From: Candidatus Poribacteria bacterium
GTDB lineage: Bacteria; Poribacteria; WGA-4E; WGA-3G
NCBI GenBank assembly: GCA_965215265.1
Contig: OZ244048.1
Coordinates: forward strand, 2,784,001-2,848,000
DNA length: 64,000 bases
Direction: 5' to 3'
How positions within the stretch are numbered: the first letter of the stretch is position 1; every line of letters begins with the position of its first letter. Of the stretch, positions 15,959 to 64,000 are shown piece after piece. Under the pieces are notes generated by a model. That model did no database searches. It had not been told where the DNA came from and worked only from the letters and a program-made list of their open reading frames with translations. The position numbers and the translations under genes are program-made.

Positions 15959-16259
15959 CCATTCTCCTTTATACATTGCTGAATTGACATATTAATTGTT
16001 GCTGTAGAACCTCTAACGAGATAATACGAAACGTGTCGGGTTCTTGCCTCTCTTCTACTTTGACGGGTGCCCAGAAATATTTCCTCCTTTCAAAACAGTT
16101 TATCACAGAACACGAAATTAGCGAAGTTAATTCTTAATTTTGATACAAACGCGTATCTGCAGCCCGTGGCAAGAGATAGCGCGATGAATGACCTGACTAC
16201 GAATAGCACAGTCTGACATTGCACCATCCACCACGGCAGGCTTTTCTGAAAAAAAAGCA

Positions 16260-17963
16260 TTAATACAAAATATGCACCCGATTCTTACCGCGAACCGTCT
16301 CATCCGGCATGACAAGCGGCATCTCAACCACGGCGATGAAACTACCATCTGGACTGATAGCCAACGTATCGTAAGGGAGCTGCCCCGCCACGCGGTAAGT
16401 ATCAATGTATTTGGACAAACCGCTTCCCTCTGCCATCAGATCGAATACTGAAACACCGTGAAGACTTTCATTTGGGCCCTGGCTCCGCTTTGAGACAGCT
16501 AGTGCAGCATAACGCCCGGGCGCATCAATCCGTAAACCTTGCGGCATATTTTCAAGCTGCCACTGCCACCGTTTTTCACCTGTCCACGAGTAAGCAAACA
16601 ACGTCAAGCCATTCGGATGCGCAGCCGCCGGACGTTGCGCACCCTTCTGTAAATGATACGGAATATAGGTATCTCCAGTGACAAAGAGTGCTGCAGCATC
16701 CGTTGCACCGATAGTCCCCGCGGTAGCGATAATCGGAACACCGCTTACCTCCAGCGGTGCTGCCAAATGGTGCTGCCAGATTGGATGCGATGTGTTCACA
16801 TCAAAGATGAAGGCGCGCCCATCGTCCGTTGTAACGTTGATAAAGCTACCATCAGGCGATATACCGACACCACGCCAAAATGTTACACCTGCAAAGTAGG
16901 GCTTGAGCGGTTCAATACTCGATTGCCACCGTTGCTTCCCTGTTTGCAGGTCAATGACACTCAGCCTGCCTTTACCCTTGCCGCTTTCATCGCTTAACAG
17001 TGCGAACGTTTTTCCGTCCGCACTAACATCAAACCAACGTAGTATCTGTGGTAGAGCACCATCAGCAGGCCACTTCCATGTGACAGTGCCTGTCTTTCCA
17101 TCAAAACGGTAAAGCTGCGATTTCAGCATCCGCACACCGTTTTCTTGCCACGAATGCATACTGGAAACGAGCAAGCCATCATCCGGCAGCGTGAACATCC
17201 GAGAAGGCCCAGGGTATTGTATCCATGCATAGACACTCCCTGGGTCCGACGGGATAGAAGTTTCAATGTCGTCAGCTGTACGATATTTCCATAGTAATTG
17301 TTTCGAATTTATATCATACGCATAGATAAATCCATCCGCTGCTTGTTCACCAATATAGAGTCGATTTCCATTATCACCAAACGCGACATGCCTGACATAG
17401 CCCTCCGAAATCCGCGTCTTCCAAACTGTGCGCCCCGTGAGCAGCTCAATTACTCCGATGTATCCAGCATCCGTTGCAATCGCTAATAAACGGTTTTGTA
17501 AACTACCGCCTAACGCCACCGTAGTAGGTTTCGCCGGCCGTCGCAAATTTTCTATTAACGCCAACAAACCATCCAATTCAATCGTCTGAATTGGGTAGAG
17601 GGCAGGTTTTAGCGGTGCCCGGGCATCCGCAATATGCACTCCTGCATCAGACGTGACTTTCAAACGATAGCTCTGATTCGGAACCCATGCAAACTGAATC
17701 AGCGCGCGCTCGGACGTGAGCTGCAGCATGGATACAGGAACATCCGCAGCCTCCTTTTCTGTTATTGACGCAACATCGATTTTGAGTGCGTGCGGTGTTT
17801 CAATCACCGCTCCAACGCGTGTCCACACGACATTGATGCCAGCATTCTTTGTTAGTTGTTCATCTCCATAAGCAGTCCGTACAGCACTGATAAGGACGAT
17901 AACCAATAAACAAAGCCAGGTAACAGTACAATTTTCTCCTAAACAGATTTGATTTTTCTTCAT
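16260..17963 (-). CDS. exported PQQ-like beta-propeller protein (third gene of the B12-riboswitch operon)
   Basis: Signal-like N-terminus; repeated D..TG...W motifs. Confidence 0.75.
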   Translation of the reverse strand: MKKNQICLGENCTVTWLCLLVIVLISAVRTAYGDEQLTKNAGINVVWTRVGAVIETPHALKIDVASITEKEAADVPVSMLQLTSERALIQFAWVPNQSYRLKVTSDAGVHIADARAPLKPALYPIQTIELDGLLALIENLRRPAKPTTVALGGSLQNRLLAIATDAGYIGVIELLTGRTVWKTRISEGYVRHVAFGDNGNRLYIGEQAADGFIYAYDINSKQLLWKYRTADDIETSIPSDPGSVYAWIQYPGPSRMFTLPDDGLLVSSMHSWQENGVRMLKSQLYRFDGKTGTVTWKWPADGALPQILRWFDVSADGKTFALLSDESGKGKGRLSVIDLQTGKQRWQSSIEPLKPYFAGVTFWRGVGISPDGSFINVTTDDGRAFIFDVNTSHPIWQHHLAAPLEVSGVPIIATAGTIGATDAAALFVTGDTYIPYHLQKGAQRPAAAHPNGLTLFAYSWTGEKRWQWQLENMPQGLRIDAPGRYAALAVSKRSQGPNESLHGVSVFDLMAEGSGLSKYIDTYRVAGQLPYDTLAISPDGSFIAVVEMPLVMPDETVRGKNRVHILY

Positions 17964-17989
17964 TTTTATAATCCTCTATTTATCACGTT

Positions 17990-19861
17990 TTAATCCGAAA
18001 CCCGCCAAAGTCCCCTACCCAAACGGGCCCCTAAAAGTACGCCGATAAAGGTATAGGCGAAACCTTCAACAAAAATACGTAGAAACATATACCATTCCGC
18101 ATAGAACAATCGATAGAAGACGATTGAGAGTTGGAAATCAACATAAACAGCGAGCGCATCGCAAATTCCCAACGCGACTGCCCACGCCAATAAACCACGG
18201 TGCTGCACAAACCAGAATCCTGTTTCAAGCAACAGCACGCTTGTACTCGTATAGATAATCATCATCGGGGTAAAAAGCCCAAACGTGATACCCCCGAGTA
18301 GCAACCCAACAGCAGAAACCAGGAGGATTACCCCCGGTTTACCGCCGCCGGTGCCCCTCTTCCCTCTCGGTTCCCCACCGATATAGAATAACAGCGCAGT
18401 CAATAGGGCATAGTAGAACGTCTCGTTAACCAGACCCGTCAGCAGCACAGAGACAGGACCCAGTACAGAACGGATCAGATTCATGAAGAGCGTTGACGGA
18501 ATAATAACGCATACAAACACAGTCGCACCGAAAAGCGCGATGACAATCAGCTGTTTTGTTGAGAACAGCGAAAAAAAACGGGTGTGAAATCGGAGCACCA
18601 CTCCTAATCCGATAATGCTCACCATCACTGCTGCCCCAGTCACAAACAATGCATGGCGATTGGGTATAATAATCTGAAGCGGACGTTCTGCGCGCAGCAC
18701 CGTAGTCCGACTGCCCCAGATCTTCACCTCAATCTCACGTTTGTAGTCGCCTGCCTGCGCGGCCACCATATCCAAATAAATCGGTAAGGGAATAGAGCTT
18801 AGCATTTGCGGTGGTAGGCTCGCAAAAGCGACGCTCCTGTCCGTCCCTGCGTTAACCGCATCGGGGGGCGTGAGAAACGGCACCGTCTCTCCGCTGTTTG
18901 CATCACGGTTAATAGCAGAAATAACAACATGGATAGTCTCCTGCCCATGATTGTGGAGTTTCACCGTTTGGTATGCCACCGGCTCATAAGCATCAATTGA
19001 GAGATGCCGCCATCGGCCGAGAACCGGCTGGGCATGATAGAGGGTATCCGTGCGCTGCCGTGCATCCACAACGCCCACTGCATCCGTAGGCATCTGAACC
19101 GATTCAATTGAAAGCAATCCGCCAATCTCCTCCACCGTTGCTGAACGCACACGCAATTGCACCTGCTGCTCCCACGTCTCATCCCCTTCAAACCTAACCC
19201 TACCACGAATTGTGGTGTTGTTAGAATTATCCGAAACTTCATGGATTTTCAGCACCAATTCACTATACCAGACCTCGCCGGCGACAGTAAATGTCCCGGA
19301 AGTTGATAAGCAGATTTGCTCATCAAGCGTCTCTTCTATCCAACCTTTTGGAAGTGAAACCACTGTAATTGCTTGCGGTAGACAGAGCTGAACACGAAAG
19401 TCAGCATTCACGTCTGCGTTCCCATTTTTCAAAAGCACCGTCGCCGTCACGTCACTGTTGTGGAGTACAAGAGATGCAGGGGGCGTAGACTGTGAGTGTG
19501 TCACCGCCGCCCCGTACGGAATTGAGATTTCCAGACTGCCGCGCGTCTGCACCTGGGGCGCGGTAACTGTTCGAACGCTGATATCGGAATTCGCGAGCAC
19601 TATCTCAAACCGATAGCGCTCGCCTTCGCGCCACTCAAAATAAAGCGATTCCACCTGACGAGGCGGCACAGGAAAATCAAGCCGCGCCACCTTCATACCC
19701 TCACGATTAAAAGCTGCAACGCTTTTGACTGAGGATGGAATGTGAAGCTTTGCCCCCAGTGGAAAAAACTCTATTTTCCATACAAGAGGTGTCTCTTTTC
19801 CTTTTTCACCACAACCCAATAGGAGTAGAGGGAAAAAGAGACACAATACCGATTTTCCCAT
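17990..19861 (-). CDS. lipoprotein with large extracytoplasmic domain fused to a C-terminal ECF S-component-like membrane domain
   Basis: Lipobox LLLGC; beta-rich domain; about 6-7 C-terminal TM helices starting FSTKQLIVIALFG and containing KPG, typical of S components. Confidence 0.65.
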   Translation of the reverse strand: MGKSVLCLFFPLLLLGCGEKGKETPLVWKIEFFPLGAKLHIPSSVKSVAAFNREGMKVARLDFPVPPRQVESLYFEWREGERYRFEIVLANSDISVRTVTAPQVQTRGSLEISIPYGAAVTHSQSTPPASLVLHNSDVTATVLLKNGNADVNADFRVQLCLPQAITVVSLPKGWIEETLDEQICLSTSGTFTVAGEVWYSELVLKIHEVSDNSNNTTIRGRVRFEGDETWEQQVQLRVRSATVEEIGGLLSIESVQMPTDAVGVVDARQRTDTLYHAQPVLGRWRHLSIDAYEPVAYQTVKLHNHGQETIHVVISAINRDANSGETVPFLTPPDAVNAGTDRSVAFASLPPQMLSSIPLPIYLDMVAAQAGDYKREIEVKIWGSRTTVLRAERPLQIIIPNRHALFVTGAAVMVSIIGLGVVLRFHTRFFSLFSTKQLIVIALFGATVFVCVIIPSTLFMNLIRSVLGPVSVLLTGLVNETFYYALLTALLFYIGGEPRGKRGTGGGKPGVILLVSAVGLLLGGITFGLFTPMMIIYTSTSVLLLETGFWFVQHRGLLAWAVALGICDALAVYVDFQLSIVFYRLFYAEWYMFLRIFVEGFAYTFIGVLLGARLGRGLWRVSD

Positions 19862-19871
19862 ATCGTTATAC

Positions 19872-21119
19872 CTACTTCGGGCTATCGAAGGAATTTGCCA
19901 CTAACACAAGATCGCGAATATCAACCACTTCATCCATGTTGATATCAGCGAGTATCGCCTGTCCCTGTTCGCCCAGATATCGGCTCACAATGAAAAGATC
20001 TGCAGTGTCAATAAAGCCATCGTCATTGACATCTTCAGCCCTCGGCACAATCTGTGCAATTCCTATAATAGAGGCCCCCGGACCGACTTGATACGTTTGA
20101 CGGAGCGTCTCATCGGCTCCCATAATGCGCACCATATCCTGGCCGCCGCCAGTCCAATCTGGATAGGTGATATAGAGGCTCCCATCTGCCGTGAAAGCCA
20201 TACCGGAGCCGCCACCGAAATCAACAAGCGCATCCGCTTTATCGCGAACCCATCTTTCTGTGACTAAATCATAGATGAGAAGCCCCGGTGCCGGCCAGCC
20301 ACCTTGGATAAACAGCTTCTCTTCCGAATTGAGAGCAAAACTACCCGGTGCCATCTTAAGCGGTACTGTTTTGCGAACCTCAGCCGTGGCTGCATCAATC
20401 AGCACCAGATTTCCTGGGATGAGATTGTAATCGCCTATTGTTTTGACAATCACGGTATTCTCTCCATCGTTGAGAATACCACCTGCATTTGTCGGCATGG
20501 CGATGGACTTGAGAACAGTGTCTGTCTCGGTATCAATTACCGTCAGACTGCTATCGTGATAGTTAACTTTACGTGCCTCTGCATCGTACTCCCACGCAGG
20601 ATTGGTAATGTACGCCTTACCGTCCAGAACAGTTATCCCTGTCGGTTTGTTGAAAGGTCCCGTAATGGTTTTGGTCACATTCCGATTAGCAATGTCTATG
20701 ACATGTACTTCATGCACAGCGTCACACGTCACGTACATCCTGTTAACATCTACAAAAGCGAGACTCTGCGGTTGTGCACCTGCACGAATCGGAATTTCGC
20801 CCACAATCTCTCGCCGCTGAAGATTGATAATTAAGATGTTATTGCTATAAACGTTAGGAATATATGCGAGATGTCCCCGAATGAGCAAATCGCTCGGGAC
20901 ATTGCCCAGGGGAATAATCTGATTGTCAACAGCACGTTTCTCATTCGGTTCCATTAAATCTATAATTGAGAGAGATGTGGTAATACCCAACTCAGGGTGA
21001 GTCAGTGCGTTTACAACAACACCAAGATGCTGAACCTCTGCCTGTCCCAAAGCAGCACCAGCAAGCAGAATGAACAGGATACTACACGCTATGCATGTTT
21101 TAAAAAAACTTGTTTTCAT
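19872..21119 (-). CDS. YncE-type beta-propeller with C-terminal dockerin-like domain (BtuG-like candidate B12 binder)
   Basis: GGAGG RBS before MKTSFF at 21119; signal peptide; YVTN-like blades (KAYITN, LTVIDTETDTV); C-terminal EDVNDDGFIDTADL...ADINMDEVVDIRDLVLVA. Confidence 0.75.
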   Translation of the reverse strand: MKTSFFKTCIACSILFILLAGAALGQAEVQHLGVVVNALTHPELGITTSLSIIDLMEPNEKRAVDNQIIPLGNVPSDLLIRGHLAYIPNVYSNNILIINLQRREIVGEIPIRAGAQPQSLAFVDVNRMYVTCDAVHEVHVIDIANRNVTKTITGPFNKPTGITVLDGKAYITNPAWEYDAEARKVNYHDSSLTVIDTETDTVLKSIAMPTNAGGILNDGENTVIVKTIGDYNLIPGNLVLIDAATAEVRKTVPLKMAPGSFALNSEEKLFIQGGWPAPGLLIYDLVTERWVRDKADALVDFGGGSGMAFTADGSLYITYPDWTGGGQDMVRIMGADETLRQTYQVGPGASIIGIAQIVPRAEDVNDDGFIDTADLFIVSRYLGEQGQAILADINMDEVVDIRDLVLVANSFDSPK

Positions 21120-21135
21120 TAAAACCTCCGTAATG

Positions 21136-21171
21136 AAACAAAAATCCCTGCTTTCGTCAGGGAAAACAGGG
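21136..21171 (-). terminator. intrinsic terminator in the riboswitch expression platform
   Basis: Minus strand CCCTGTTTTC-CCTGAC-GAAAGCAGGG followed by ATTTTTGTTT, between the aptamer and the first RBS. Confidence 0.65.
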
Positions 21172-21269
21172 GCAACTTGGAGGCACGAACGCTTTTGCAA
21201 AGCGAAATTGCACATATCAATAGCACGTGCTGTTCCACTGCTCTCCCGCGAAAGCAATAGTGTGAACAC

Positions 21270-21445
21270 GACTCAGGCAGGTCTCCTGACTTCCGATCTT
21301 TCCGCTCCACCTTCCCATCAAACTGATAGTGGTTTTGAAGCGGATACTTTGCCCTTTTGGCAAAAAATCGTTCACAGTGGCGGGGCCGTGGCGGTTTCTC
21401 ACCGCGCTTCCCTATTCTCCGTAAAACGGCACCTGAACCGTAATG
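21270..21445 (-). ncRNA. cobalamin (B12) riboswitch
   Basis: Minus strand reads AGGTGC...AATAGGGAAGCGCGGTGAGAAACCGCCACGGCCCCGCCACTGTGA...CCACT...TGGGAAGG...AGTCAGGAGACCTGCC (B12 box). Confidence 0.95.
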
Positions 21446-21466
21446 TATTCAATTGTTATCAGGTAT

Positions 21467-21495
21467 ATTATATCACATTATAGTCCTTTTTGCAA
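21467..21495 (-). promoter_or_regulatory. promoter of the B12-riboswitch operon
   Basis: TTGCAA-17-TATAAT with extended TG, about 25 nt upstream of the aptamer. Confidence 0.7.
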
Positions 21496-25509: not shown

Positions 25510-27146
25510 TTGCCAAAAAACACGACTTCACTCGCTGCAACCCAAACTACACTGCTATTTCCGCCTGCAGACGAGCAACATTTGAACATAGCCACGCTTG
25601 AGACGTGGCTGTGGGATGCCGCTTGTGTGATTCGCGGCGCGACTGATGCCCCGAAATTCAAGGATTTTATCCTGCCCCTGATCTTCTACAAGCGGCTTTC
25701 GATGTGTTCGACGATGAATTTGCCAAACAGGTTGAGGAGTTCGGTGATGAAGAATCCGCACGCGACATCATCGCAACCGACCATGGGGATGCACTCAGGA
25801 ACGATCGGGCACCGATTGTCCGTTTTTACATCCCGCAAAGTTATCATTGGGATGCGCTTCGCAGCCACCCTGCAGATGGGCACTTAGGCGAATTTCTCAC
25901 CGAAGCGATGCGGGAGGTGGCACGGCTGAATCCGCTGTTGCAAGGTGTGCTTGATGTGAAAGACTTCAACGAAACACAGAGCGGCCAGCGTACCCTTGGC
26001 GACGACCGGCTGGCGCAACTCATTGAAGTGATGAGCCGGTATCGACTTGGGCTGCAAGATACAGAGCCGGATATCCTCGGGCGTGCGTATGAATACTTGT
26101 TGCGGAAGTTTGCCGAAGGACAGGGGCAGAGCGCGGGCGAGTTCTATACCCCAAAAGAGGTCGGATGGCTGATGGCAAAACTGATTAACCCGGCCCCTTA
26201 TACGACGATTTACGACCCGGCGTGCGGTTCTGGCGGGCTGCTTATCAAACCGCGTTTGTTATTTGAGCAGGCACACCCGGATAAAAAGAGCCAAGCTCCT
26301 CAAATCTATGGGCAAGAGTCGAATGCTACTACCTACGCCATGGCGAAGATGAACGCCTTTCTGCACGATTTTATCGGCGCGGATTTTCGCATCGGCGATA
26401 CCTTCCGCAATCCGCGCTTTGTTACCGACGGCACCGCACTACAACGCTTCGATTATGTCCTCGCCAATCCGATGTGGAATCAAGATAGTATGACGAAAAC
26501 CTTTTACGCGAATGATAGCTGGCGGCGGTTTCAGGACGGAATACCGCCCAATTCCTCAGCAGATTGGGCATGGGTGCAGCACATGCTCAACTCACTGAAA
26601 GGGAACGGACGCGCCGCGATTGTGTTGGATACCGGGGCAGTCTCCCGAGGGTCCGGCGCTAAACAGAAGAATAAAGAGCGCGACATCCGCAAAGCGTTTG
26701 TGGAGAACGACCTGATCGAAGGCGTGCTCCTTTTACCCGACGACCTGTTTTACAATACGGGCTCGCCGGGTATCATCTTGCTGCTGAACCGCAACAAACC
26801 GCCAGAACGCAACGCGCAAATCCTGCTGATCAACCTTTCCAAATATTTCGTCAAGCAGGATCCTAAAAACGTGCTAACCGATGAAGGGATTGATGCGGCA
26901 ACGGAAGTCTATCGGGCGTGGGAGTCCCGTAACAAGTTGAGCCGTGTCATCACGTTAGAAGATGCGCGAAAAACTGATTACAACCTGAATCCTTCGCAGT
27001 TTGTAGACTTGAGCGATAGAGTCGAACACCGTCCTATCTCTGATATTCTGGCAGACTTCACGGAGACGCGTATGGCTCGCGAAAAGGCGGATAAGGCGTT
27101 GGAAGAGGTGTTGACACGCCTCGGACTCAATACGCGGAGGGGGTAA
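25510..27146 (+). pseudogene. hsdM: type I R-M methyltransferase, frameshifted at about 25700
   Basis: [14 protein letters not shown]...FYKRLS continues as DVFDDE in another frame (CTT TC GAT GTG, 1 nt missing). Motifs GEFYTP, YDPACGSGG and NPMWN are present. Confidence 0.85.
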
Positions 27147-28381
27147 TGCGTAAGATGAATTTGCCAGAATACTTAGAAATTGGGGAAATTCCTGAGAGTT
27201 GGAAGGCTGTTCGATTAGAAGAAATCGCTGACGTGCGGGCAGGTGCAGCTTTTCCTAAAAAATATCAAGGGAATACACAAGGAAAATACCCTTTTTACAA
27301 AGTTTCAGACATGAATCTTATAGGAAATGAAACTTTAATGAGCGGATCAAATAATTGGGTAGAGGAAAATACAGTTCAAACTCTCAGAGCAAAATTATTT
27401 CCAAAAAATACAGTCATTTTTCCAAAAGTGGGGCAGACTATTCATACGAATAAAAAGCGGATGCTATCTCGCGATAGTTTAGTGGATAACAACGTGATGG
27501 GGGTAACGATTCGAGATTACGATCAATGTTTTCCTTATTATATGTTGTATTGGTTTGAATTTATTGACTTAGTTGATCTTTCTAATCCTGGTCCTCTTCC
27601 GGCAATTACGGCTACGACAGTAAAAAATACGAAAATTCCCCTCCCCCCACTGCCCGAACAACGCGCCATTGCCCACGTCTTACAGACAATCCAAGACGCT
27701 AAAGCGACGCGGCAACGCGAGATTGCATTAGCACGGGAGCATAAAGCAGCGTTGATGGATTACCTCTTTTCACACGGCACGACGGGGGAACCCCGCAAAC
27801 AGACAGAGATTGGGGAAATTCCGAAGAGTTGGAAAATTTTGCCCTTTGAAGCGTGTTTGAAAAAGCTTAAACCTAAGAAAGTGTCATCTATTCCGAAAAA
27901 AGACTATCAGACAGCCGGCGATTTTCCAGTCATTGACCAAGGGGCATCATTTATTTCAGGTTGGACAAACTCCGTTGAGTGTATCATTTTTGAGAACTTG
28001 CCTGTGATTATCTTTGGAGACCATACTCGCATTTTCAAATATGTTGATTTTCCATTTGCGATTGGGGCTGATGGAACGAAACGCCTCTATGCAAACGATG
28101 ATTTTTTGGATGCCCGCTTTTTCTATTACGCACTTGTGAATCTAAAAGTGCCGAATAAGGGATATAATCGACACTATAGGTATTTGCGAGAGTTTTCAGT
28201 TCCGTGTCCACCATTGCCTGAACAACGTGCCATTGCACAGGTTTTTCAGGCAATTGATGAAAAAATCGCAGCCCTTGAACAAGAAGTGATATATTTAGAT
28301 GAGTTGTTCTACGCTATGCTTGACGAACTGATGACAGGGCAGAGGACTGCTGTACCGCTGATCGATGCGCAGATTGTCTGA
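27146..28381 (+). CDS. hsdS: type I R-M specificity subunit
   Basis: Two TRDs flanked by repeated EIGEIP.SWK and PPLPEQRAIA segments. Confidence 0.93.
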   Translation: MRKMNLPEYLEIGEIPESWKAVRLEEIADVRAGAAFPKKYQGNTQGKYPFYKVSDMNLIGNETLMSGSNNWVEENTVQTLRAKLFPKNTVIFPKVGQTIHTNKKRMLSRDSLVDNNVMGVTIRDYDQCFPYYMLYWFEFIDLVDLSNPGPLPAITATTVKNTKIPLPPLPEQRAIAHVLQTIQDAKATRQREIALAREHKAALMDYLFSHGTTGEPRKQTEIGEIPKSWKILPFEACLKKLKPKKVSSIPKKDYQTAGDFPVIDQGASFISGWTNSVECIIFENLPVIIFGDHTRIFKYVDFPFAIGADGTKRLYANDDFLDARFFYYALVNLKVPNKGYNRHYRYLREFSVPCPPLPEQRAIAQVFQAIDEKIAALEQEVIYLDELFYAMLDELMTGQRTAVPLIDAQIV

Positions 28382-28474
28382 ACTGAACCTACATGCAAAA
28401 TTGATACCTATTTTTGCAATTTTGCATCTGATTAACGGCCGACAACGTGCCGCTAGTAAAATTCGAGGACAGTT

Positions 28475-31353
28475 ATGTCTGAACGTTCTGTAGTCCAGGA
28501 GCCGATGCTCAAATACGCTAATGAAATTGGGTGGGAGTCTATTTCTCTATCAGAAGCGATGTGCATGCGTGGCGGTGATAGCGCCGCGTTTTATTTTACT
28601 GATGTGCTGAAAGCACAACTGTTGAAACTCAACAGGGGCGTGGTAGACGACTCCAATTGCGCGGATGTTATGCGGCGGCTCGGTTTGCTTGATGCGACAC
28701 TTGAGGGAAATCAGCAGGCACTTTCCTGGCTGCGCGGGGAACAGTCAATTTTTGTTCAGAACGAAAACCGCGAGTGCAATGTCAGACTAATCGATTTTGA
28801 AAACCCGGACAATAACCTGTTTCATGTAACCGATGAATGGTTGCAGCAAGGCACCGTGCATCGTAACCGTGCCGATGTTGTGTTTCTGATTAACGGGATT
28901 CCGATGGTCGTTGTGGAAACCAAAAATGCTACGAAGGTAGATGGCTTGGCGACTGGTGTCGAACAAATTCGTCGTTACCACCGCGAAACGCCGGAGTTGT
29001 TTACCACAGCACAACTCTTCGGTGTCACGCAGCTGCTGGACTTTTTCTATAGCGTGACGTGGAACACGAGTCGTAAAAACCTGTTCAACTGGAAAACAGA
29101 CGAACCTACCAACTACGAGCAGAAGGTGAAGACGTTCTTTGAGCGAGAGCGCTTCCTGAAGGTATTGAAGGAGTCGATTATTTTCCAGAGCAAAGATGAT
29201 GCGTTGACAAAAGTAGTGTTGCGGCAGCACCAGACGCGTGCTGTAGAGAGGGTGATTGCGCGGGTTGCGGATGCGAACAAACGGCGTGGGCTTGTCTGGC
29301 ACACGCAGGGCAGCGGGAAAACCTTGACGATGATAACCATCGCGTCACAATTATTGCGCGGTGGACACCAAACCGAAAAACCGACTGTGCTCATGCTAAT
29401 TGACCGGAATGAATTGGAAAGCCAGCTCTTTAGAAACCTCACCGGTTACGGGATTACCACGTTTGAAGTCGCAGAAAGCAAGCGCGACCTGCGGGAGATT
29501 TTAGCGTCTGATTACCGGGGATTGGTTGTGTCCATGATTCATAAGTTTGATGGTATCCCGGCGAACATCAACCCGCGCGACGGTGTGACTGTGCTTGTTG
29601 ACGAAGCACACCGAACCACTAGCGGCGATTTGGGAAATTACCTGATGGCAGCCCTCCCGAATGCGACCTATATCGGTTTTACCGGCACCCCGATTGACAA
29701 CCTGTCACATGGCGACGGGACATTTAAGGTGTTCGGTGTGGATGACGAGCAGGGCTATCTGGATAAGTATGCGATCGCTGAATCGATTGAAGATGGGACA
29801 ACTGTTTCCTTGAATTACGCGCTCGCACCGTCTGATTTACAAGTGGATCGCGAAACATTGGAACAGGAATTTTTAAGTCTTGTGGTAAACGAAGGCATGA
29901 GTGATCTGGAAGAGCTCAACGCAATTCTTGACAGTGCTGTCCAGTTAAAAGCGATGATGAAGGCACCGGAGCGGGTAGATAGCATTGCTAAGTATGTTGC
30001 ACAACACTTCCAAAACACTGTAGAACCGATGGGCTTCAAGGCATTTCTGGTGGCTGTTGACCGGGAGGCGTGCGCGTTATATAAGCAGGCACTGGACAAA
30101 CATTTACCATCAGCGTATTCGGAGGTGGTCTATTCTCCATACCATCAAGATTCTGAGACGCTCAAGGCATATCACCACACCGCAGACGAAGAAAAGGAGA
30201 TGCGAAAACGATTCACAGACAAGAACGAGCATCCAAAAATTCTGATTGTAACCCAAAAGTTGTTGACCGGCTTCGACGCACCGATTCTTTACTGCATTTA
30301 TCTGGATAAACCGATGCGCGACCACGTACTGTTGCAGGCGATTGCCCGTGTCAACCGACCGTATGAGGACAAAGACGGCCTGGTTAAACCTGCCGGATTT
30401 GTCTTAGATTTTGTCGGCATCTTTGAAAACCTCGAAAGAGCACTTGCTTTTGATTCAGACATAGTGGAGAGCGTGATTCAGAATATTGAGGTCCTCAAAG
30501 AGGCTTTCGCCAAGCAGATGTGTGGAGATGCTGCGATATATTTACCGCTAGCCGCGGGTTGGGACGATAAAGCAAAAGAGCGAGCCATTACGCATTTTGA
30601 GGACAAGGACAGCCGAGAAACTTTTTTCAAATTCTTCAGGGGATTGCAAAACCTTTACAACATTCTTTCACCGGATGCTTTTTTACGTCCGTTTATAGAG
30701 GATTATCAGGCACTTGCATCCGTCTATGGCCTGATTCGTAACGCTTATGCCGACCGCATCTACACGTTGATAAGGAGTTAACCGCCAAAACACGTGAACT
30801 TTTACAAACGCATACAGAGAGCAATCTGTTTGAGTTACCAGATGCAGTTTATGAATTGAGCCCTGACACCTTGAGGGAAATTGATCAGAGCGATGCATCT
30901 GAGACGGTCAAGGTTTTGAATTTGCGGAAGGCCCTGCGGCAGACGGTAACGGACGAAAGTCAATCGAAGCCGTTTCTGACTTCGATTGGCGAACGTGCGG
31001 AGACAATTACGGCGGCTTATGAAAACCGTCAACTTTCGACACAAGATGTTTTGGCTAGGTTTATAGAGCTAGCCGAGAAGTATGCCCGTGCTGCAAGAGA
31101 ACGCGACCGGCTGGGCTTGGACGAGAACGCCTTTGCGGTTTATACGGTCCTCAAGGACGTTATGAAAGACGTTACCCCGGAACAAGCACGTGCCGTTAAT
31201 CAGGTGTTTACGCGATTTCCTGACTATCAGTGGAACAGCCACCAAGAAAGCGCGCTGCGGATGAGGCTCTATAGTACATTGAAACCTACAGTTGGAACAG
31301 AAAATCTGATCGAAACAACAAACAAATTGTTGAAGTTGGAACGAGTAAAGTAG
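28475..31353 (+). pseudogene. hsdR: type I R-M restriction subunit, frameshifted at about 30764
   Basis: Motifs RADVVFLINGIP..VVETK, HTQGSGKT, DEAHR and QAIARVNR. ATC TAC AC GTT GAT AAG joins the frame of ORF 30856..31353 once 2 nt are removed. Confidence 0.85.
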
Positions 31354-59359: not shown

Positions 59360-62300
59360 TTAGCGCGTCAGAGCGAGCTTGAGAATAGCATACTCCGGCT
59401 CAAAACCATCCGCCACCATGACTTGGCAGAAATAGATGCCCCTAGCTAAGTCTTCGCCGCCAGTTGTTGTTCCATCCCAACCGATTGCATTCTTGCCTAT
59501 ATACTCACCAGCATCCCAGACCTCGTTATCCACGAGGACTCGAACCGGCCGGAGCGTGATGTCGTAAATCACGATACTCACCGTAGATTGCCGGTTCAGC
59601 GTGAAGGAAATCCGAGTATTCTCTTTGAAGGGGTTAGGCGCGTTAATGGGACGCGCTGCGAGCACGGGGCCTTCTTCCTCTTCAAGGAGAAAACTAAACT
59701 CGTGAACTGTCATGTTTGCTTCACGGGCACCGTTATTCTTTTCAGAAACGTTGCCTTCTTGATGCGCCATGTCAGATACTTCAAGTTTAACCGTATGTTT
59801 TCCAACCGCGAGGTCGGCAAGTGGTGTATAGATAACCTGCGATGCCGACTTCTGATTCGGTGCCAGGTTCACCAACTGGTCATCGAGAACAAATCGGATG
59901 GAATCCGGATCAACGCCGGACTCGGCATCAGCAAAACTGATTGCAATCGTCGGTCGGCGTTCAGTTAGGCGTGCATCCTGTTGTGGCGATGATAACGTGA
60001 TAATGGGAGCAGCAGTATCGAAATCGATTGTGAAACTGCCTTTGGCGGTAGCAGAGTTCCCAATTGTATCCGTGGCACGGACTTCAATCGTGTAAGTGCC
60101 CTCGCTAAGGGGTGCTTCAGGAATGAAATCGATTCGTGTAATTCCCTCAACATCGTCCTCACTATCATCTTCATCACTGCCTTTGACCTCTTCGCCGTCA
60201 CTATCAATCACGACAATAGACATTTCATCAACGCCAGATTCGTCGTTGGCACTCGCCGAAATTGTGGGTAGCCCGCCACGGAAAGTTCCGGCAGGTGTGA
60301 TTGAGGTAATCGTCGGTGCGACGTTATCAACAACCAGCGTGAACGTCCAAGAATATTCTGTTGAACCGCCTTCGCTGAGTGCAACGACTTTGAGTCTATG
60401 CGTTCCGGGCGTAAAACTATCGGAAATTTCCAGCCGTCCTTGAGCGATTTGCGCTAGCGGTACAGAACGAAGCGGTTTGTCGTCTATACCGAACCGCACG
60501 CTTGTAACTGCTGATTGTTCGTCTGCCACAACAGCAGAAATGGTTACCCAACTGTCCCCCTTGATAAGTCCGGACGGTCCAGCTTCTGTAATGATAGGGG
60601 GGGTGGTATCTTTCGGCATTGCTACCGTGAAAATCACAGAAGCTTGTACCGTTTTGCCATTACCATCCGTCACTTCAACTGCCACAGTGTGGTCTCCATC
60701 CACTAACTCCTCTTCAGGTGTATAGGAGAATCGGTTGCCGTCTACGGTTGGCGTAGCATCATTTCCATCTAAAGTAAATGTTGTCACTTCAAGTGCACCG
60801 GCCCCAGAAAATTCACCACTGATAAGTGGTTTGCCATGTTCAAATGTCTGACCGGAAGCAGGTGCATGAATCATGACTGTGGGGATTGTGCCACTAATCG
60901 CGAACTCAACAGAAGCCTCCCCGACATTTCCGAGTATATCAGTTACTTGAATGACAACACGGTATGCTCCTCCGGGAAGCTGCTCGTTGCGTGTGTAGAC
61001 CAGCTCAGTTTCATCTTTTTCAAGCATCGCTGGATCTACGGCCACGTCCGCTTCGTTTGGCGGCTGTATACGAACCAAGCCGACCTTCCCTGTTGCTCCA
61101 TCAACACCCCCACCTGCACCGTCATGATATTTGGCGTGAACAGTGGGTAGACTGTCGATTGTATGTCCGGCCAACGGTGCCTCAATTGTAATCGTTGGAG
61201 GCGTATTGTCCAGATGAACAAGTGCCTCACCCGCGGAGAGCGGGAAGGATACGGAACCGTTCCGTTGGGTCACCACAGCGTATGGGGTGTAGAGTCCATC
61301 GGGCAGCCCAGAAAAATCAACCGCTGCTGAGAACGTATTTTCCGGATCTTCGGTAATTTCACTCGGAACCTCACCACCATTGACGGTAGTGCCACTTAGA
61401 TCTTCCAGACTCAAAGAACCGTTCGCAACCGTGAAACTTACAGCAACTGACGATTTGAGTAGAATAGGTTCCGCTGGTGGTTCCTGCACGGGTTCACCAT
61501 CAACAGCTGTCACCACCAGGTCACTGACATCAGTAGTGCGGAAATTGAGCACATTGACATCGCTTGCGGGGGACTCATCTGTTTGCACGTTTCCGGCTGC
61601 ATCAACAGCCAAAGCATGGAAGGTATAGAGTGCATTCTCTAACTGACCGACATCAACCGTGATTTTAAGGATGCCAACTTCACCAACAATTTCGGTTATC
61701 GTACCGTCAGCGGCGGTTTGCACCAATTTTACCGAAGCGTATGTATCCTCGGCGGCTGTAGGTTGGACCGTAAAGGTTGCGATAGGTGAGTTAACCGTTG
61801 CATCAACAATGCCCCCAACCGTGTAGAGCCCGTCGCCATCCGGAGCAATCACACCGGCGACATCTTCAACAATGAGAATGGGGGTTGGTCCGAGCGGTGC
61901 AACATCATCCACGTTATCAACAGAGAGTTTTGCGCTGACACCTGCAGCTGCTATGGTTTCGGTCCCATCGCTTGCGATGGCAATCGCGCGAACGGTATAT
62001 TGATCGTCGTCCTTAGAGGCATCGCGCGCAGCAGGACTATCTGCGGTAATGGTATCTTCCAATTGGGTTGTATCAACAGTGTGCACCCATTTCATATAGT
62101 TGTGAACAATGGGCACAACCGCTTTACCACCTACTGCGGCACCTGCGAGGTCCTCAAGGACACCGACAAATTCCTGGCCTTCAGGTGTTACACCGGTGCT
62201 TTGCTGCGCAGTGCCCACATCTATCCAGTCCGTGCCGCTGCTCTGTTTAACCTCAAATCGAATCGCGACGATATCCGGTGCCGTCCGTTCCGGGGTATAG

Positions 62301-64000
62301 GCGTTAACGGTAACAGAACCTTGTGGTCCACCGCTGTCTGCATTCGTTGTTTCTGCAGCATCTACGATAATAGACGATACTTCAACAGCGACGGGGCAAA
62401 CACCAGGGTCTAACTTTATCTGTGCTGCTACTGGTGCTTGGTCCGTAAGTGAGAATGCATTGGTTGCAACTGCCCGAACCGTCACACTGTTCCCAGCAGC
62501 GACTAAGGCATCAAAATCTTTGATGTTCCAATTGACATCATGCATCGAACCGATTTTGGTTCCAGCCAGATCAAATTCGCCAATATTCTGCCAAGCCCCA
62601 CTCGCGTCCATGTACTGCACCATTACGGTGGCAGGATGGATTGTGCGGTGGGTCACTTCGATGGTTAATACCACATTTTCAGTCGTATTCGAGAAAATGG
62701 TTACATCGCCAACTGCCCCGCTTTCATACGGATCGTCGGTGTCGCCATCGCCAGTACAATCACCAATGACAGCAGAGACAACCTGCGCTGTGTCGTAAGA
62801 GGTAGCAGGAACTGGGAAGGCTCCAGGGTCTAACTTTATCTGTGCTGCTACTGGTGCTTGGTCCGTAAGTGAGAGCGCATTAGCTGCAACTGCCCGAACT
62901 GTCACGCTGTTCCCAGCAGCGACTAAGGCATCAAAATCTTTGATGTTCCAATTGACATCATGCATCGAACCGATTTCGTTCTCAGCCAGATCAAATTCGC
63001 CAATATTTTGCCAAGCCCCACTCGCGTCCATGTACTGCACCATTACGGTGGCAGGATGGATTGTGCGGTGGGTCACTTCAATGGTTAACACCACATTTTC
63101 AGTCGTATTCGAGAAAATGGTTACATCGCCAACTGCCCCACTTTCACCTGGATCATTGGTATCGCCATCGCCATTAGAATAATCACCAATGACAACAGAG
63201 ACAACCTGTGCTGTGTCGTATTCAGGTGCGATAACTCTGAGACGTGTCGGTTCGGTGTGAGAACTAACGTTAAAGAGGGTATCAATTCCTAATGCGCGAA
63301 CCCCATAGTCGCCAATCAGGAGTGGCATCTGTTCGCCTTGGATGGGCATAACCACGTTATTATCCGGGTCTCCGAAGGTTAACGGCACAGCATTCAGCAA
63401 GTTAACTGTAGCGCCCAAGACATCGTGTAAAACTTGGCTACCCTCTAGGGTCAACTGCCTATTTCCGATATTGATAATCGAGTTTAAATCTTTGAGGAAG
63501 GGATTGGCGTACTGTTGTATCAAACTGGGAGTCAGAAGAGAAAGTACAGTCTCCAAGGGTAGCCCCCGCAGCATCTCAAGATCTCCGCGAAGTGCACCTT
63601 GAATTTCTGCTTGTGCTAACGCTTCATCCCATAGTCTTGAGGCAAGCATAGTTGCATCAATAGTGAGGGGCATCCAAGTGCTTTCTGGGAGACCATTAGC
63701 ATCCAATTCAACCTCTTGGAAGACCAAATATCCTTCGCCCGGTGCGACCCCGGCAATTTGTCCAGCGTTGATATTCAACGTAGCGGCTGTCCCGGGCTGT
63801 GGTGCGGTAGCAACATAAACCCCTTCTTCATTCAAATAACCGCCGGTGTTGCTACGCGGGGAAATCTGAAGTGTCGCCTCAGGCGCGTTGGTATCAACCG
63901 TAAATTCCCCTTGCATCTGATCTAGAGAATTTCCTGCGGCATCATACACAACGGCTTGTAAGTAGTAGTTCCCATCAGCAATTGAATCAATGTTAGCAGT
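59360..64000 (-). CDS. giant secreted multi-Ig-domain protein with T9SS type-A/FlgD-like C-terminal sorting domain (5' end outside the window)
   Basis: Frame is open to 64000; many D.T.P.I Big-like repeats; C-terminal NAPNPF...ISFTL....V...IYD...VRVL...WDG.....LARGIYF. Confidence 0.88.
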   Translation of the reverse strand, partial: TANIDSIADGNYYLQAVVYDAAGNSLDQMQGEFTVDTNAPEATLQISPRSNTGGYLNEEGVYVATAPQPGTAATLNINAGQIAGVAPGEGYLVFQEVELDANGLPESTWMPLTIDATMLASRLWDEALAQAEIQGALRGDLEMLRGLPLETVLSLLTPSLIQQYANPFLKDLNSIINIGNRQLTLEGSQVLHDVLGATVNLLNAVPLTFGDPDNNVVMPIQGEQMPLLIGDYGVRALGIDTLFNVSSHTEPTRLRVIAPEYDTAQVVSVVIGDYSNGDGDTNDPGESGAVGDVTIFSNTTENVVLTIEVTHRTIHPATVMVQYMDASGAWQNIGEFDLAENEIGSMHDVNWNIKDFDALVAAGNSVTVRAVAANALSLTDQAPVAAQIKLDPGAFPVPATSYDTAQVVSAVIGDCTGDGDTDDPYESGAVGDVTIFSNTTENVVLTIEVTHRTIHPATVMVQYMDASGAWQNIGEFDLAGTKIGSMHDVNWNIKDFDALVAAGNSVTVRAVATNAFSLTDQAPVAAQIKLDPGVCPVAVEVSSIIVDAAETTNADSGGPQGSVTVNAYTPERTAPDIVAIRFEVKQSSGTDWIDVGTAQQSTGVTPEGQEFVGVLEDLAGAAVGGKAVVPIVHNYMKWVHTVDTTQLEDTITADSPAARDASKDDDQYTVRAIAIASDGTETIAAAGVSAKLSVDNVDDVAPLGPTPILIVEDVAGVIAPDGDGLYTVGGIVDATVNSPIATFTVQPTAAEDTYASVKLVQTAADGTITEIVGEVGILKITVDVGQLENALYTFHALAVDAAGNVQTDESPASDVNVLNFRTTDVSDLVVTAVDGEPVQEPPAEPILLKSSVAVSFTVANGSLSLEDLSGTTVNGGEVPSEITEDPENTFSAAVDFSGLPDGLYTPYAVVTQRNGSVSFPLSAGEALVHLDNTPPTITIEAPLAGHTIDSLPTVHAKYHDGAGGGVDGATGKVGLVRIQPPNEADVAVDPAMLEKDETELVYTRNEQLPGGAYRVVIQVTDILGNVGEASVEFAISGTIPTVMIHAPASGQTFEHGKPLISGEFSGAGALEVTTFTLDGNDATPTVDGNRFSYTPEEELVDGDHTVAVEVTDGNGKTVQASVIFTVAMPKDTTPPIITEAGPSGLIKGDSWVTISAVVADEQSAVTSVRFGIDDKPLRSVPLAQIAQGRLEISDSFTPGTHRLKVVALSEGGSTEYSWTFTLVVDNVAPTITSITPAGTFRGGLPTISASANDESGVDEMSIVVIDSDGEEVKGSDEDDSEDDVEGITRIDFIPEAPLSEGTYTIEVRATDTIGNSATAKGSFTIDFDTAAPIITLSSPQQDARLTERRPTIAISFADAESGVDPDSIRFVLDDQLVNLAPNQKSASQVIYTPLADLAVGKHTVKLEVSDMAHQEGNVSEKNNGAREANMTVHEFSFLLEEEEGPVLAARPINAPNPFKENTRISFTLNRQSTVSIVIYDITLRPVRVLVDNEVWDAGEYIGKNAIGWDGTTTGGEDLARGIYFCQVMVADGFEPEYAILKLALTR
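62403..63220 (-). repeat. about 0.4-kb near-identical tandem domain duplication
   Basis: 62403-62797 and 62823-63220 both encode YDTAQVVS...AQIKLDPG, with few substitutions. Confidence 0.92.

Follow-up and report, generated by a model that had tools for sequence, protein, structure and literature searches.

How a diderm bacterium takes up corrinoids when the operon under its cobalamin riboswitch contains no recognisable B12 transporter is the question raised by a three-gene locus in a sponge-associated Poribacteria genome. The locus lies in a 64,000-nucleotide stretch (contig OZ244048.1, positions 2,784,001 to 2,848,000; hereafter the window, in whose numbering coordinates are given unless they carry a prefix) of Candidatus Poribacteria assembly GCA_965215265.1, a single contig of 4.83 Mb that is 95% complete and whose close relatives are all labelled Candidatus Poribacteria. 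The best explanation, to which a probability of roughly 0.6 is assigned, is that the operon is a B12-repressed corrinoid acquisition module of the energy-coupling factor (ECF) type in a B12-auxotrophic bacterium. Its second gene encodes a lipoprotein with a predicted ECF S-component domain, its third gene a propeller predicted to bind that lipoprotein, and its first gene a secreted propeller with a dockerin.

The riboswitch operon and the probable need for B12

The operon is encoded on the minus strand. Its cobalamin riboswitch aptamer (RF00174; 21259..21451 (-)) matches model positions 1-189 of 189 with 99.5 bits (E 1.2e-23), against a gathering score of 31.5 bits, and is the sole match in the 4.83-Mb genome, in which 150 of 156 first-look candidates were scored. 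A sigma-70-like promoter site (21467..21495 (-)), consisting of TTGCAA, a 17-nt spacer with a TG extension and TATAAT (10/12 consensus matches), lies 16 nt upstream of the aptamer. It is a consensus match for which position is the sole argument, as promoter-like sites occur no more often in the region than expected (7 against 8.0). The putative expression platform (21136..21171 (-)) is a GC-rich intrinsic-terminator-like hairpin (21171-21146) followed by a T-run, ATTTTTGTTT. This hairpin sits just upstream of the GGAGG and start codon of gene A, and the minimum-free-energy structure of 21110-21290(-) (z -3.19) contains it.

Three tightly packed genes follow, separated by gaps of 10 nt (A-B) and 26 nt (B-C). 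Gene A (P0001, 415 aa; 19872..21119 (-)) starts at the ATG at 21119, which the GGAGG precedes; a longer open reading frame (ORF) starting at GTG 21269 was rejected because it overlaps the riboswitch aptamer. Gene B (P0002, 623 aa) occupies 17990..19861 (-) and gene C (P0003, 567 aa) occupies 16260..17963 (-). None of the three encodes a TonB-dependent receptor (TBDR), a BtuFCD protein or an ECF A or T protein. A first-pass annotation, made from the letters of this DNA, had described a promoter, B12 riboswitch and terminator ahead of three closely spaced genes without btuB, btuFCD or ECF A/T genes among them. All of these features were recovered here, and the RF00174 scan that it had proposed returned the full-length match described above.

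The arrangement is conserved in Poribacteria loci with gene B relatives. Gene B relatives with 54-73% identity were collected from 80 Poribacteria loci, and RF00174 was found upstream on the same strand in all ten loci tested by Rfam. An nhmmer profile built from these ten detected the riboswitch upstream in 77/80 loci, and in the three misses (L034, L050 and L062) the DNA extends barely or not at all beyond the gene A position on the upstream side. The order riboswitch-A-B-C was kept in 76 of the 80 loci by tblastn; among the exceptions, two loci lack gene A at a contig end and L061 ends after gene B. The check proposed in the first-pass annotation, whether homologous clusters also follow B12 riboswitches, thus gave a positive answer in all 77 Poribacteria loci with upstream DNA, but the link is patchy elsewhere.

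The gene content of the genome is consistent with a requirement for the vitamin. Neither CbiC nor CobS was found in the 95%-complete genome, which encodes a full five-domain MetH of 1249 aa as well as a corrinoid protein whose gene adjoins that of a RACo activator. The bacterium seems to rely on cobamides that are imported in complete form. BtuB was sought among the eight TBDRs of the genome and set aside, as none reaches the BtuB model cut-off (the best scored 157 bits against 599.7 bits). This best-scoring receptor belongs to a TBDR-HmuY-HmuY-FecCD-ATP-binding cassette (ABC) cluster (C1 about 4132786-4139847; L091:12787-19848) with a Peripla_BP_2 match within or near it and no riboswitch, which is likely a heme or tetrapyrrole route.

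The S-component-like lipoprotein and the two propellers

Gene B carries a lipobox (LLLLGC) with its lipobox cysteine. Its sequence matched no Pfam or NCBIfam family at E<=1 and no PDB sequence, including that of any S-component. Its relatives form 361 clusters at 50% identity (E<=1e-3), many of them full-length, and the gene B profile found no paralogue in the genome. An atlas look-up returned unnamed clusters and one ABC_cobalt match with a score of 0.84, which serve as leads only. The structure was modelled with AlphaFold2 on an alignment of 50 diverse relatives (mean pLDDT 90.1). The model comprises three periplasmic beta-sandwich domains (about 29-100, 105-243 and 250-398), a linker transmembrane (TM) helix (402-424) and a bundle of six helices (435-622). 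In fold, the ectodomain is similar to pilins, cohesins and macroglobulin domains.

Foldseek on the whole model returned Ig-like multidomain matches alone (integrins and macroglobulins), driven by the ectodomain, and for this reason the six-helix domain was folded alone (pLDDT 93.2). When this model was aligned by VIA-align to 48,161 PDB representatives, the best 14 matches were all ECF S-components, with Z from 13.2 to 8.0, and the next, an unrelated chain, scored 6.9. The best match was YkoE (5edl; Z 13.2, root-mean-square deviation 3.0, 170/197 residues aligned), and the S-component matches include two RibU, an HmpT-type protein, NikM, CbiM, two ThiT, PanT, BioY, BtuM and two FolT. NikM (Z 10.4) and CbiM (Z 9.3) aligned over 174-176 residues, including the extra N-terminal helix. 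With Foldseek, 5edl (E 4e-3) was the sole chain below E 0.1, all others being at E 0.34 or weaker. On these predicted structures, the C-terminal domain of gene B is an ECF S-component fold.

Other properties of the model and the family alignment agree with this assignment. Counting the linker helix with the six of the bundle, the ectodomain is predicted to be periplasmic and both ends of the S-domain cytoplasmic, which is the topology of S-components, and a glycine- and lysine-rich loop (496-510) lies on the cytoplasmic side. An AxxxA-type small-residue motif in TM1 of S-components serves docking to EcfT. In gene B, TM1 contains the small-xxx-small motif A442-L-F-G-A446, in which column 442 is A/S in 46/50 sequences and column 446 is S/A/T/G in 50/50. 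The invariant residues R584 and W590 sit where the last two helices end on the outer side, and the invariant E546 is in helix 4; all three may have a role in binding.

The closest structural comparison is with the Bacillus subtilis thiamine/HMP transporter YkoEDC, of ECF group I (YkoE structure 5EDL; PMC5037267), whose YkoE is the best fold match and whose dedicated motor with a fused double ATPase resembles the motor genes found beside gene B relatives. YkoE differs in having no detectable sequence similarity to gene B, which adds a lipobox, three beta-sandwiches, a linker helix, an obligate propeller partner and B12-riboswitch control. The fused ATPase of this transporter is reportedly YkoD. 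ECF-CbrT of Lactobacillus delbrueckii (6FNP) and BtuM (8OVV) share the fold class and the expected substrate class of gene B, but they are bare six-helix proteins without ectodomain or propeller. The fold comparison with CbrT and BtuM proposed in the first-pass annotation did match both, but they matched less well than the vitamin-type S-components, scoring below YkoE, RibU and NikM in a VIA-align comparison of folds.

Gene C encodes a signal peptide, an N-terminal beta-sandwich and a PQQ/BamB-like beta-propeller (PQQ_2, 53.6 bits), and it is a conserved partner of gene B, being co-located with gene B relatives in Poribacteria and in other phyla. Its N-terminal sandwich (window 17601-17921) is homologous to domain 1 of gene B (19550-19785; E 7.6e-5, with cross-hits of 1e-5 to 1e-11). 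Across lineages this shared sandwich occurs in both proteins, in the propeller alone or in neither. Co-folding of mature gene C (residues 33-567, 21-row alignment) and the ectodomain of gene B (20-400, 50-row alignment) gave an ipSAE of 0.83 (runs 0.82, 0.85 and 0.83), whereas the best of three controls scored 0.00. The ipSAE mark used is reached by 58/80 solved complexes and 2/110 mismatched pairs, counts that are approximate here, where custom alignments were used. The runs had at least 42% of contacts in common, and partner pLDDT was at least 82. In the predicted complex all three gene B sandwiches touch the gene C propeller blades around residues 404-527, and both copies of the shared N-terminal sandwich lie at or near the interface, which involves residues 56-76 and 192-201 of gene B and 463-471 and 514-527 of gene C. 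No solved complex of a comparable kind is known to us. The prediction supports binding of gene C to the gene B ectodomain.

Gene A has a cleavable Sec signal peptide without a lipobox, with which the homologue consensus agrees, a YncE/YVTN-type beta-propeller with sub-threshold matches to YNCE, DUF5074 and YVTN repeats, and a C-terminal type I dockerin (Dockerin_1, PF00404; residues 362-410, 30.2 bits, cut-off 22.9). When PDB sequences were searched with a profile built from 20 Poribacteria homologues, the profile reached BtuG1 in the BtuB1G1 complex (8blw_B; E 1.7e-8, positions 85-339), BtuG2 (8bmx; E 1.8e-3) and BtuG3 (8okv; E 4.9e-3), with the BtuG2/3 matches ranging from about 2e-3 to 6e-3, as well as PDB dockerins with E down to 1.2e-8. 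The structures 8blw, 8bmx and 8okv are those of BtuG1, BtuG2 and BtuG3 according to PMC10404256. Gene A resembles the Bacteroides BtuB-BtuG system described there in being a YncE-type propeller encoded in a B12-riboswitch operon. It differs in lacking a lipid anchor, in place of which it carries the dockerin, and in having no adjacent BtuB gene or TBDR in the operon.

The dockerin is retained in most Poribacteria homologues of gene A. The genome encodes eight PF00963 cohesin matches above the cut-off, in proteins of 509-1470 aa (e.g., C1:3216567, 2569793 and 2485848), and these would be natural partners for the gene A dockerin. Eight such proteins imply a sizeable cohesin-dockerin network, of which gene A would be one client. 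The middle domain of gene B was also considered as a cohesin for this dockerin, given its cohesin fold matches (Z 9.9-11.8), and was set aside because pilins, YcnI and macroglobulin domains score alike and the genome has eight true cohesins. The first-pass annotation had named the three products as a secreted YncE-type propeller with a dockerin-like tail, a lipoprotein fused to an ECF S-component-like membrane domain and a PQQ-type propeller, and each of these descriptions is confirmed by the profile, fold and Pfam matches above.

The unlinked putative motor and relatives in other phyla

A search of the genome for a shared EcfAA'T, another proposal of the first-pass annotation, identified a single module. 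One CbiQ/EcfT gene adjoins a gene for a 522-aa ATPase with two ABC domains (fused EcfAA'), about 743 kb from the operon and with no adjacent S gene; the pair occupies C1 about 3548164-3550756. The S-component Pfam families PF12822, PF02632, PF01891, PF09819 and PF07155 (ECF_trnsprt, BioY, CbiM, ABC_cobalt and ECF-ribofla_trS), the five to which this search was limited, had no match in the genome. Among 61 Poribacteria-phylum genomes, EcfT occurs in 55 and gene B in 55, with the same six genomes lacking both, all six outside the order. Furthermore, the AA' and T proteins of the genome show 32-41% identity over their full length to those encoded beside distant gene B relatives. The gene B system is thus probably not motor-less. 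The upstream neighbour of the EcfAA'-EcfT module encodes a 660-aa B12-binding radical-SAM protein (B12-binding, Radical_SAM and DUF4070; C1 about 3550972-3552954; L090:9973-11955, minus), and radical-SAM genes also head several distant gene B-family loci.

Members of the gene B family also occur in human-gut metagenome contigs and in the cultured genera Desulfarculus and Desulfatibacillum. A metagenome scan with an alignment led by a Desulfarculus baarsii protein yielded 80 loci from 303 confirmed relatives; many of these are near-identical human-gut contigs, so that independent lineages are far fewer, and a quick tree was used solely for picking query sequences. By our reading of a tblastn panel, AA' and/or T lie directly beside the S gene in 73/80 of these metagenome loci, and in the remaining seven the contig ends within about 2.2 kb. 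The same panel found no gene A homologue in the 80 loci; an atlas look-up with gene A returned dockerin-propeller clusters in other phyla, as a lead only. Pfam annotation of 77 ORFs from 12 loci placed a CbiQ/EcfT gene, a fused double ATPase and a PQQ_2 propeller each beside the gene B relative in 9/12 loci. CobN-type chelatases and TBDRs were neighbours in 5/12 loci each, CbiZ and TonB in 2/12 each, and BtuR/CobA in 1/12.

The adjacency of AA'/T and propeller genes in these relatives, together with the 32-41% identity of the AA'/T proteins in the genome, places gene B in a family whose members are the S-components of dedicated, propeller-associated ECF transporters. Poribacteria have separated the motor from the substrate-side genes. 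Two traits set their form apart: the motor genes lie far from the operon, and the operon has gained a BtuG-like propeller with a dockerin tail.

The nhmmer riboswitch profile is too narrow for other phyla, and Rfam was used there. In L092 the order is riboswitch-TBDR-AA'-propeller-S, and L106 contains BtuR followed by riboswitch-TBDR-S. In the human-gut contigs L115 (15094-15266) and L117, the strand that encodes the gene B relative also carries a riboswitch some 6 kb further downstream, past an ABC exporter-type gene; this riboswitch presumably controls the next operon. CobN-like proteins are known as cobalt chelatases. The patchy riboswitch link outside Poribacteria and these CobN-type neighbours suggest that, across all its lineages, the family may serve corrinoids or other, related tetrapyrroles, and the CbiZ and BtuR neighbours favour corrinoids.

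The Poribacteria operon itself is flanked by ftsY downstream and a Diphthami_syn_2 gene upstream. Gene C and ftsY, on the same strand, are separated by a 284-nt gap (window 15976-16260) in which the scan reports no terminator-like site on that strand, and ftsY might be partly co-transcribed with the operon. Elsewhere the window contains a complete type I restriction-modification system (HsdM, HsdS and HsdR; 25704-30781 (+)) and, at its end, a 1529-aa ORF (59360-63949 (-)).

Proposed mechanism, competing explanations and significance

The riboswitch, folds, gene linkages and phylogenetic co-occurrence were computed here, whereas which way regulation runs, what the ligand is, how it is handed on, which cohesin is used and how the motor is coupled are inferred. 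As the anatomy of the leader suggests, scarce adenosylcobalamin would let the riboswitch permit read-through past the terminator. Gene A, held in the envelope by its dockerin on one of the cohesin proteins of the genome, would then capture the corrinoid. Gene B would be the S component in an ABC importer of the ECF type, with a lipid-anchored triple-sandwich ectodomain that holds gene C in the periplasm as in the predicted complex. Ectodomain and gene C together would replace a periplasmic binding protein and deliver the ligand to the pocket of the S-domain. The only EcfAA'-EcfT module of the genome, as co-occurrence and adjacency in relatives suggest, would power import and drive toppling. 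This corresponds to the diderm job of BtuF-BtuCD, a periplasmic corrinoid catch followed by an inner-membrane ABC importer, but with unrelated parts, the catcher being fused domains plus a propeller and the importer being ECF-type. The relay from propeller binders to an S component with a large ectodomain that the first-pass annotation had envisaged is thus supported in its folds and riboswitch link, but its motor is probably present and unlinked.

Several observations weigh against this corrinoid-importer explanation. The ligand-binding and transport roles rest on predicted structures and genomic context. By sequence, gene B belongs to no described S-component family, and in fold its membrane domain is nearer to YkoE, a thiamine-type protein (Z 13.2), than to BtuM (8.7) and CbrT (6.0), the S-components for B12. 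A Z near 13 can reflect a common arrangement among helical bundles, and since such a value is ambiguous by itself, the S-component call rests on the unbroken run of S-components among the matches. The gene A profile matches 1l0q, a non-B12 YVTN propeller of an archaeal surface layer, at E 2.2e-9, as strongly as BtuG1. Gene A is therefore placed by its sequence in the YncE superfamily as a distant relative of Bacteroides BtuG, for which a role as a BtuG analogue is plausible, though unproven. The operon contains no outer-membrane transporter, and no TBDR of the genome is at the BtuB cut-off.

The genomic context also contains contrary points. L017, alone among the full-length loci with riboswitch, gene A and gene B, has no gene C match by tblastn within 6 kb downstream. 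Outside Poribacteria, RF00174 lies upstream on the same strand in 2/24 loci, L092 and L106, and about 6 kb downstream in one, with none within the fetched flank in 21. CobN-like proteins can also be heme de-chelatases, as described for HmuS (PMC12583661) and BtuS1/2 (PMC6460266). Since one order has both EcfT and gene B and six outlying genomes have neither, their co-occurrence amounts to roughly one evolutionary contrast and is at most suggestive.

Four other explanations were considered. Gene B could act alone as an S-component that needs no ECF motor, which has been proposed for BtuM and some BioY, with EcfAA'T serving something else. BtuM, among the fold matches of gene B at Z 8.7, reportedly works without a motor and offers a precedent, and the lack of an A or T gene in the operon and the distance of the Poribacteria motor genes would fit. 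Such a role is unlikely, as gene B and EcfT are jointly present or absent in 61/61 genomes, none of the five S-component families searched for is there to use the motor instead, relatives adjoin AA' and T, and the AxxxA-like motif of TM1 is conserved. B12 riboswitches often control cobalt uptake, and the system could by that token import cobalt or another metal ion, as CbiMNQO and NikMNQO do, rather than a corrinoid. The alignments of NikM and CbiM through their extra N-terminal helix and the CobN chelatase genes beside relatives would agree with a metal substrate. In CbiM and NikM, however, it is the free N-terminus that binds metal, and in gene B this is replaced by a 400-residue ectodomain; with CbiC and CobS not found, no cobalt demand for B12 synthesis is evident, the genome has no CbiM-family match, and the CbiZ, BtuR and BtuG-like neighbours point to whole corrinoids. 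Metal import is very unlikely on this evidence.

The CobN/ChlI/ChlD-type genes and TBDRs beside many relatives without a riboswitch, and the heme activity of CobN-like HmuS and BtuS noted above, raise the possibility that the family handles heme or another non-corrinoid tetrapyrrole, and that the Poribacteria riboswitch merely couples expression to B12 status. The riboswitch is nevertheless linked in 77/77 assessable Poribacteria loci and is the sole cobalamin riboswitch of a B12-dependent genome in which CbiC and CobS were not found. CbiZ and BtuR are among the neighbours of relatives, and the separate HmuY cluster is suited to heme, so that a heme substrate for this operon is improbable. The ectodomain likeness to pilins, cohesins and macroglobulin domains and the dockerin of gene A might instead indicate three B12-repressed envelope proteins with a non-transport function such as adhesion or signalling, the S-like domain being a mere membrane anchor. 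This is highly improbable given the tight and repeated linkage of relatives with ECF ATPase and T genes and the invariant polar residues E546, R584 and W590 within the S-domain.

If the operon is a corrinoid importer, its implications would extend beyond Poribacteria. A literature search, which mostly covered journals outside subscription, found no description of the gene B family or its architecture. It is possible, if somewhat short of probable, that genes B and C represent a widespread, undescribed class of ECF importer for corrinoids and perhaps other tetrapyrroles in diderms, in which lipid-anchored receptor domains on the S-component and an obligate propeller replace the binding protein, and that Poribacteria uncoupled the motor, placed the remainder under their sole B12 riboswitch and added a cohesin-docked BtuG-like propeller. 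ECF transporters are usually described as binding-protein-free importers with small, bare S-components. To the question of how an ECF transporter works across a periplasm, built-in periplasmic domains and a dedicated propeller would be a concrete answer. If true, an extra route would join the short list of B12 uptake systems, and a docking system of the cellulosome type would have found another use in a sponge symbiont, in the scavenging of a vitamin. That a BtuG-like protein carries a dockerin suggests that cohesin-dockerin pairing serves nutrient capture beyond polysaccharide breakdown. As the single B12-controlled locus in a B12-dependent Poribacteria genome, the operon bears on vitamin exchange in the sponge holobiont.

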